Source: a virus (Duplodnaviria; Heunggongvirae; Uroviricota; Caudoviricetes). From it: 34,153 bases of DNA. Position numbers and translations under genes: made by a program. The number at the start of each line of letters is the position of its first letter. Positions within the stretch are counted from its first letter, which is position 1. Location of the stretch: IMG/VR virus record IMGVR_UViG_2874968258_000005; one strand, written 5' to 3'. The notes under the pieces are model-generated. The model made no database searches. It saw only the letters and a list, made by a program, of their open reading frames with translations, and was not told where the DNA came from. Below, in pieces: positions 17,655 through 17,868 of this stretch.

Positions 17655-17703
17655 GTCAGTCTCCGTCGTCTGGGGTTACCGACGGTCAGTATGCGGAAGG
17701 CAG

Positions 17704-17729
17704 AAAAAAAGCCGGATTTACCGGCTTCA
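17704..17729 (-). terminator. Intrinsic terminator-like hairpin (minus strand: GAAGCCGG-TAAAT-CCGGCTTC followed by U7)
   Basis: Plus-strand AAAAAAAGCCGGATTTACCGGCTTCA. A near-identical copy lies at about 25256-25281. Confidence 0.55.
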
Positions 17730-17868
17730 CTGAAAACGGGGAAATACCCCCTTCAAAACCCCTTCAAAAACGCCACAGACGCTTCAAAAAAGCCAGGGTG
17801 TACATTCATGCCATCAGAATAAAAAACGCGTTTCTGATGCGTTTCAGGGGTATTTACGGCGGGGTGGG
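17730..17868. promoter_or_regulatory. Central intergenic region: phased CTTCAAAA repeats; candidate strong gyrase site and/or late promoter for I
   Basis: CTTCAAAA at about 17751, 17763 and 17782, with A-tracts. Non-coding gap between F and I at the geometric centre of the element. Confidence 0.3.

Follow-up and report, generated by a model that had tools for sequence, protein, structure and literature searches.

Introduction

The closest described system to the locus analysed here is the strong gyrase site (SGS) of phages Mu and D108, which was reportedly characterised by Pato, Howe & Higgins (1990) and by Oram et al. (2006). Sites of the Mu type are marked by a single strong quinolone-induced cleavage with a 4-nt stagger, by efficient gyrase binding and by processive supercoiling, and they are required for rapid synapsis of the prophage ends and for replication after induction. 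The Mu SGS has served as a classic substrate for single-molecule and cryo-EM studies of gyrase, the special character of its right arm is still argued, and it is said to be the top site in Mu under the Topo-Seq gyrase position matrix. A second Mu element of relevance to this work is the middle promoter Pm, reportedly described by Artsimovitch & Howe in 1996.

PMC10052514 describes the central position of the SGS as optimal for Mu replication. There, and in PMC13284261, the right arm is presented as essential and the left arm as not essential, and the same two papers and PMC6379681 attribute to repeat motifs and phased bending signals in the right arm a role in wrapping on the GyrA C-terminal domain. 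An AT/GC periodicity of 10.75 bp has been described for gyrase arms (PMC6379681). PMC13284261, citing Oram 2006, adds that the Mu arm is required for gyrase action with the purified enzyme. According to PMC10052514, the strong plasmid sites of pSC101 and pBR322 gave no support to Mu replication, and most candidate sites examined by Pato's laboratory failed to replace the Mu SGS, a site from an O157 Sakai prophage alone succeeding. The published consensus core for gyrase is GGTAT^NNNN^ATACC (PMC6379681). At Pm, the -35 is replaced by a 16-bp element whose two inverted repeats, of 5 bp each, are bound by a Mor dimer (PMC4390567, PMC4287176).

In the Mu record, the 196-bp gap between genes G and I holds the gyrase cut at 17879/80, a predicted terminator at 17908-53, the late promoter PI at 17977-18043 and the start of I at 18056; the sequence downstream of the cut is GATTTTTTAAAACGCGCCACGGGATTTTTAAACCGGTATTTAACGG. 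Here we compare with this arrangement the largest intergenic region of a Mu-like prophage of E. coli.

The prophage and its central intergenic region

The window, by which we mean the whole stretch of 34,153 bp that was analysed, is an E. coli Mu-like prophage whose genes lie on the minus strand. The repressor, encoded on the plus strand, is followed by ner, transposase A, B, early genes, a Mor-family activator, lysis genes, terminase, portal, F, the gap under study, the I protease, the T capsid gene, tail genes and com/mom. An annotated prophage copy in NZ_CP065615 shares 99.8% identity with the window, related copies are present in 49 of 5,426 complete E. coli genomes, and a scan of genome contigs with protein I yielded four loci. 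The gap and its neighbours are as follows, where A1 denotes an alignment of the window, Mu, the E. coli SE11 prophage, Klebsiella phage Kp4866-3 and viral contig L027.

17869..18633, minus strand: F-like head morphogenesis gene (Pfam Phage_Mu_F, 1.8e-14; RefSeq CDS in locus L003)
17655..17868, minus strand: intergenic gap of 214 bp, unannotated, between the F-like gene and I (alignment A1)
16698..17654, minus strand: gene I, head protease/scaffold (Pfam Mu-like_Pro, 6.1e-45)

In the 99.8%-identical prophage, RefSeq labels the counterparts of window 17869-18633 and 16698-17654 (both minus strand) as 'phage head morphogenesis protein' and 'phage protease', respectively. The stop codon of the F-like gene (17871-17869) forms the boundary of the gap, and a ribosome-binding site for gene I, GGAG, lies at 17664-17661. 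No other intergenic gap of the prophage is as large as this stretch, 17655-17868, which is non-coding, since relatives show 1-nt indels inside it; the RefSeq flanks, the two Pfam families and the indels together bear out the initial annotation of a 214-bp non-coding gap between F and I. Unlike in Mu, F and I are not separated by a G gene; G sits elsewhere, so that the upstream neighbour of the gap is F. In a separate gap past the capsid gene T, a strong hairpin (GCAGTTAAAAGG...CCTTTTAACTGC) occupies 15729-15777 (minus strand), and a predicted terminator of Mu (20068-20087) is found in the equivalent place.

A count of the motif CTTCAAAA over both strands of the 34,153-bp window gives exactly three copies (starts 17751, 17762 and 17782), where about 1.3 would be expected, and all three copies fall within 39 bp on one strand of the gap. 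The three repeats first noticed are therefore present, but the spacing of 12 and 19 bp given for them is not, the start-to-start distances being 11 and 20 bp. The spacings sum to 31 bp, or about three helical turns, the T|G steps of the three repeats (R1-R3) are likewise 20 and 11 bp apart, and R2 and R3 form a perfect 11-bp tandem repeat. On the coding strand the module region reads GGCTTTTTTGAAGCGTCTGTGGCGTTTTTGAAGGGGTTTTGAAGGGGG. Further copies of the repeat motif elsewhere in the phage were looked for and none was found; a common late-promoter motif was considered as a reading of the repeats and rejected, as neither CTTCAAAA nor, at up to 2 mismatches, CCCCTTCAAAA is enriched elsewhere. 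The features of this part of the gap, in the direction of transcription, are listed below.

17812..17844, minus strand: conserved block GAAACGCATCAGAAACGCGTTTTTTATTCTGATG (12% variable columns among 19 clade sequences, compared with 45-48% in the spacers beside it)
17797..17808, minus strand: predicted gyrase G-segment core, inferred with alignment A1
17745..17791, minus strand: putative right-arm repeat module (homology chain; profile match; 20+11 spacing)
17791-17782, minus strand: repeat R1, TTTTTTGAAG (a CTTCAAAA copy as read on the coding strand)
17770-17762, minus strand: repeat R2, TTTTTGAAG (a CTTCAAAA copy as read on the coding strand)
17758-17751, minus strand: repeat R3, TTTTGAAG (a CTTCAAAA copy as read on the coding strand)

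A wedge model places a peak of static bending at 17763, the fifth highest in the window and within its top 0.1%, in agreement with the bent DNA originally predicted at the repeats. Under the same model the Mu SGS reaches merely the top 5% and is no top curvature peak, so that the predicted bend is undiagnostic of an SGS.

Homology to the strong gyrase site of Mu

The relationship of the gap to the Mu gyrase site is barely visible in a direct comparison and becomes clear through relatives that share its genomic context. Whole-gap local alignments were each compared with 500 dinucleotide shuffles. Between the window and Mu gaps the similarity was marginal (z=2.1, matched by 24/500 shuffles), and blastn searches of phage genomes with the window gap and with the Mu SGS gave zero cross-matches. 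Because direct similarity is marginal, the homology of window and Mu rests on syntenic intermediates: the window gap aligns with that of Kp4866-3 (z=9.7, 0/500 shuffles) and with that of contig L027 (z=15.6, 0/500), while the Kp4866-3 gap aligns with that of Mu (z=10.7, 0/500) over Mu 17889-17933, which is the right arm. The clearest bridge is provided by the E. coli SE11 prophage, which has the Mu order F-G-gap-I and a gap 72.9% identical to that of Mu (261 bp). Where Mu has its right arm, this gap reads GAATTTTTGAAGGTTCTGTGGCGTTTTTGAAGGGGTTTTGAAGGGGGTA, which shares 95.7% identity with window 17790-17745, and the window repeats are therefore the counterpart of the right-arm repeats of the Mu SGS. 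In A1 the gap is collinear with the G-I region of Mu, which supports its earlier description as the positional homologue of that region; as regards an alignment to the gyrase site itself, the direct match is marginal and the match by way of intermediates holds.

The SE11 prophage is chimeric in this region (L098 1560-1680; NC_011415 ~2679050-2679160), in that gene G, the left arm and the core (AGATAAAATCACGCG) are of the Mu type and the right arm that follows, TTTTGAAG x3, is of the window type. Since a Mu-type core is here joined to a window-type arm, the right arm seems, as far as these sequences indicate, to move between phages as a cassette.

In its layout the gap resembles the Mu SGS in several respects. 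Both directly precede gene I, some 48% along the genome, both have three phased T-tract/pyrimidine-purine/A-rich repeats past the cut (a predicted one in the window), oriented equally relative to late transcription, and in both the arm is followed by a predicted terminator and then by the promoter for I. The differences lie in the repeat unit (TTTTGAAG in the window, TTTTAAAC in Mu), in the repeat spacing (20+11 versus 21+12) and in the left arm and core, which are unlike those of Mu save for a GGCAT...T6 spacing and a 14/15 match to gene G. The latter match pairs window 17826-17839 (minus strand), CATCAGAAACGCGT, with the 3' coding end of Mu G, CATCAGAAAACGCGT (~Mu 17819-17833), and could be a relic or chance. 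It falls in the conserved block 17812-17844, where an inverted repeat of 8 bp, CATCAGAA / TTCTGATG, occurs together with a T6 run; this block is a candidate for either the left arm of a gyrase site or an RNA hairpin. No link between the O157 Sakai prophage and the window clade emerged from searches with Mu-type, window-type or L027-type queries.

Alignment A1 also suggests where gyrase might cut, as the Mu cut T^CAGC aligns to window ~17804-17800, GAAT^GTAC^ACC. Most members of the clade have the palindrome GAATGTGCATTC at the predicted core, and the form AT^GNNC^AT found in relatives resembles the Topo-Seq consensus core (PMC6379681). More broadly, the region shares with the Topo-Seq motif and with the pSC101 and pBR322 sites AT-rich signals on one helical face of an arm that lies beside a 4-bp staggered cut, a predicted one in the case of the window. 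We treat the cut at 17804-17800 as a prediction, because the likeness of the core was sought post hoc and this block is variable; moreover, a motif match alone makes no SGS, given that the plasmid sites failed in Mu replication. A crude strong/weak-base template derived from the 133-bp gyrase consensus was discarded, as it did not place the Mu SGS near the top of Mu.

Position of the gap within the element

The extent of the prophage was established from a relative, locus L097, whose insertion in rlmB is flanked by a clean 5-bp duplication of the target, ATATC (L097 2817-2910 and 36420-36596). This duplication fixes the prophage ends, which were applied to L003, onto which the window was then mapped. 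The element so defined is ~34,552 bp long and runs from about -125 to 34426 in window coordinates; the window stops short of both termini, by ~125 bp on the mom side and by ~270 bp on the repressor side.

Measured from the repressor end, the predicted cut lies at 48.1% of the window element, compared with 48.4% in L003, 47.6% in L097 and 48.7% for the Mu cut, which confirms that the gap is near the element centre; the repeats and predicted cut are offset from the exact middle by ~650 bp, or 1.9% of the length. In Kp4866-3 the module is at ~48% from the repressor end, provided that the ends of the record are those of the phage, and a central module was seen in all elements with ends that could be placed. 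On the strength of homology, geometry and position, the gap is a probable strong gyrase site, and its initial designation as a candidate site of the Mu type gains support from the same three comparisons.

The repeats differ from the transposase end sites

The initial annotation had also likened the repeats to the motifs bound by the transposase at the phage ends, and this likeness was not sustained. Just outside the window ends, L003 carries six perfect copies of TTCAAGATA, three per end and inverted (2590-2660 and 37140-37275), and these are the transposase-binding sites of the element. A matrix built from the six scores them at 25-33 bits. When the gap was scanned with this matrix, its best position reached 2.5 bits (rank 88), and the CTTCAAAA repeats reached at best -0.3 bits (rank 205/69,386). 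Compared with the MuA end sites L1-L3/R1-R3, the sole likeness of the repeats is a TTCAA core.

A reading of the repeats as internal MuA-type transposase sites, or as an enhancer, would draw on this core, which is common to the repeats and the TTCAAGATA end sites. We regard it as exceedingly improbable, both for the score of -0.3 bits (rank 205/69,386) that the repeats obtain under the end-site matrix and because L097 has different end sites (TTTGATAC x6) with the same repeats. The central gap of L097 is 93% identical to that of the window and its early region has diverged; to judge by sequence, there seems to have been an exchange of transposase and end specificity around a late region that is shared.

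Spread and constraint of the repeat module

When the window was searched with a profile that excludes its own clade, the top match fell on the correct strand at 17774..17726 (E=3.3e-4). The second-best match (E=0.0026) lies at 5036-5079 (minus strand) within a baseplate gene, GATTTAAACCGCTTTTTAAGGGCG...CGTTTAAACCGC, a repeat-like stretch that may reflect chance or a minor gyrase site. Beyond the window, the 24-nt pattern AAACGCGCCACRGSRTTTTTRAAC of the module occurs exactly, and once each, in 58 viral contigs, mostly of 30-40 kb and some of them GC-rich, and the 20+11 spacing of the pyrimidine-purine steps is kept in each of the 38 three-repeat modules that were scored from outside the Mu clade. 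On these comparisons, the putative arm is a widespread and strictly spaced module in several clades of Mu-like phages. Three GC-rich Mu-like viral contigs (L066, L072 and L084) contain AAAAATCNTTAAACGCGCCACGGCGTTTTTAAACGC exactly and lack the third repeat; by sequence comparison this is unusually strong non-coding conservation across distant hosts.

Among 19 distinct sequences of the clade, 10% of the columns are variable in R1 and 19% in R2-R3, roughly as in flanking coding DNA, compared with 40-48% in the spacers and predicted core (45% for the core alone). Between clades the repeats change in all units together, from TTTAAAC x3 through TTAAAC/TTGAAC/TTGAAC to TTGAAG x3.

Such constraint might be expected if the three phased repeats were a binding array for a phage protein or a host nucleoid protein that replaces or adds to wrapping by gyrase. 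The concerted switch of all three repeats between clades, the exact 24-nt stretch in 58 viral contigs, GC-rich ones included, and a constant spacing, together a degree of constraint that appears to exceed the needs of indirect readout, are in keeping with such an array. Set against this, our searches identified no candidate binding protein, the repeat motif is found nowhere else in the phage, and purified gyrase alone is reported to recognise the Mu arm, according to papers cited in PMC13284261 and PMC10052514; Sutormin et al. describe the absence of a known protein motif under gyrase sites (PMC6379681). In addition, the TA and TG steps are both flexible, so that a variant repeat keeps its physical character, and slippage could homogenise R2 and R3, which are a perfect 11-bp tandem. 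We therefore consider a binding array to be quite unlikely. A related proposal, to which we assign an equally low probability, is that the triple repeat acts as a sequence-specific module read either by the GyrA C-terminal domain or by a phage or host protein that organises the loop; it is prompted by the invariance of the 20+11 spacing, the exact 24-nt stretch in GC-rich phages and the concerted switch of TTTAAAC to TTTGAAG. The gyrase-wrapped arm of a Mu-type SGS remains our preferred reading of the module.

Predicted transcription signals downstream of the repeats

The part of the gap between the repeats and gene I contains a series of predicted transcription signals, two of which have counterparts or partners elsewhere in the window.

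17738..17751, minus strand: small hairpin GGGGGTATTTCCCC with GTTTTC after it; the G-run of R3 forms the 5' arm
17704..17730, minus strand: Mor-type dyad and T7 run, TGAAGCCGGTAAATCCGGCTTTTTTT (23/24 identity to Mu Pm 9179-9202)
17688..17693, minus strand: -10-like hexamer CATACT (aligned in A1 to CAAACT of Mu PI)
25258..25280, minus strand: second copy of the dyad and T-run, exact over 23 bp, directly upstream of the lysis gene lys (24613-25200)
25286..25735, minus strand: Mor orthologue, the presumed activator at both dyads (Pfam Mor, 4.3e-30)

Two hairpins on the transcribed strand are predicted to have the form of Rho-independent terminators, one at 17728..17708 with a T7 run and a weaker one at 17751..17738 with GTTTTC. 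The latter, which is likely to be the intrinsic terminator of the upstream head operon, takes a position equivalent to that of the predicted terminator of Mu (17908-17953), and a hairpin follows R3 in every lineage compared, with a stem sequence that varies by lineage.

These features suggest an alternative in which the gap is a transcription boundary only, with no special role for gyrase, the repeats and T-runs acting as tandem terminators of the F operon or the repeats perhaps serving as an upstream A/T element for the promoter of I. Three terminator-like hairpins are present where about one is expected, the R3-based hairpin persists in every lineage with lineage-specific stem sequences, the predicted Mu terminator encloses R2-R3, and a weak AAACGC/GCGTTT stem between R1 and R2 is possible in several clades. 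Folding does not bear this out for the repeats, as RNAalifold over R1-R3 of 11 diverse sequences gave -0.35 kcal/mol, essentially no common structure, and L028 and L036 keep three repeats at 20+11 without the R1-R2 stem. The sole Rfam match for the gap was sroD, whose 19.1 bits fall well short of the gathering score of 50 (E=0.3), and a conserved RNA structure or known RNA family over the repeats, of which RNAalifold and Rfam show none, was rejected as an explanation. The invariant features are instead those of DNA, namely motif identity and helical phasing; the homologous Mu arm is required for the action of purified gyrase, as stated in PMC13284261 with reference to Oram 2006, and terminators leave the conserved central position unexplained. 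A transcription boundary alone is thus an unlikely account of the gap, and we retain the reading in which a probable SGS is followed by transcription signals.

The stronger hairpin has a further identity. The window dyad has the structure by which Pm is defined, GCCGG...CCGGC inverted repeats followed by a T-run, and matches Pm at 23 of 24 positions (AAGCCGGT(T/A)AATCCGGCTTTTTTT; the Mu stretch reads AAGCCGGTTAATCCGGCTTTTTTT). The dyad of Pm itself looks like a terminator, TransTermHP marking Mu 9179-9200 inside Pm. Apart from the copy upstream of lys, no third copy of the dyad was found in the window at up to 3 mismatches. Given the identity to Pm and the exact copy at lys, the hairpin taken initially for an intrinsic terminator is first of all an activator site: the hairpin and its T7 run are indeed present, termination is displaced as their primary role by the match to a Mor-binding dyad, and hairpin 17728-17708 may also stop transcription from F.

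The protein encoded at 25286-25735 shares 61% of its residues with Mu Mor (E 1e-61), compared with 32% for Mu C. It is the only gene of the Mor/C family in the window and is located where Mu has C; unlike Mu, the phage has no C gene. Downstream of the dyad, CAnACTG is conserved in A1 at the -10 region, and the late promoters of Mu have their hexamer in this register. The gap thus resembles the C-dependent PI of Mu in its position upstream of I and in the aligned CAnACTG, and differs from it in the upstream activator site, which is of the Mor type rather than the C-type CCATAACCCC box of PI. With CATACT as the -10 hexamer, the centre of the dyad would fall at ~-37/-38, ~6 bp shorter than the -43.5 of Mu Pm. 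Both the dyad and the -10-like hexamer are invariant in the 19 clade sequences.

Identity to Pm, a Mor orthologue and CATACT together indicate that the gap ends in a Mor-type promoter for I, and they lend substance to the late promoter for I that had been suspected initially. The presence of this Pm-like promoter is supported by sequence, and its dependence on Mor is what we infer from the dyad. The two dyads of the window precede structural and lysis operons (I and lys), whereas Pm drives the middle operon of Mu; from this arrangement, Mor-type promoters seem to control the lysis and head genes of the phage directly, and the tier formed by C in Mu is absent.

Two further stretches resemble half of a Mor dyad, CCGGTAAATCC. 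One, CCGTAAATACCCC, lies at 17847-17859 (minus strand) just past the stop of F; the other, GATTAAATACCCCC, lies at ~876-889 (minus strand) upstream of com, has a -10-like TATATC after it, and might be the promoter of the mom operon.

Discussion

The comparisons presented here point to a composite, cis-acting gap that would have been inherited from a common Mu-type design. Its upstream two-thirds would form the central strong gyrase site of the prophage, to which gyrase is expected to bind with the cleaved G segment at ~17804-17800, and the adjacent right arm would wrap around a GyrA C-terminal domain. This arm would consist of three identical units, each a T-tract, a pyrimidine-purine step and an A-rich stretch, placed on one helical face at intervals of 20 + 11 bp, and once wrapped it may present the T segment such that supercoiling is efficient and processive. 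As proposed for Mu, the ~34.5-kb prophage could then be extruded to form a plectonemic loop, the apex of which is the gyrase site, allowing the prophage ends, with three TTCAAGATA sites each, to meet for transpososome assembly after induction. The downstream third of the gap would end the upstream head operon and restart transcription: a hairpin built on R3 would be followed by the GCCGGTAAATCCGGC dyad and T7 run, as a Mor-type activator site and probably a terminator too, and the -10-like CATACT would drive I and the genes beyond.

From the point of view of annotation, this is the ordinary and expected central site of a Mu-like prophage. The wider value of the clade is as a natural variant of the arm, in which a Mu-like geometry is combined with a different repeat word, TTTTGAAG. 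Together with the graded intermediates and the one chimera that joins a Mu core to a window arm, it constitutes an allelic series with which to ask whether gyrase reads the shape of the arm or its sequence.
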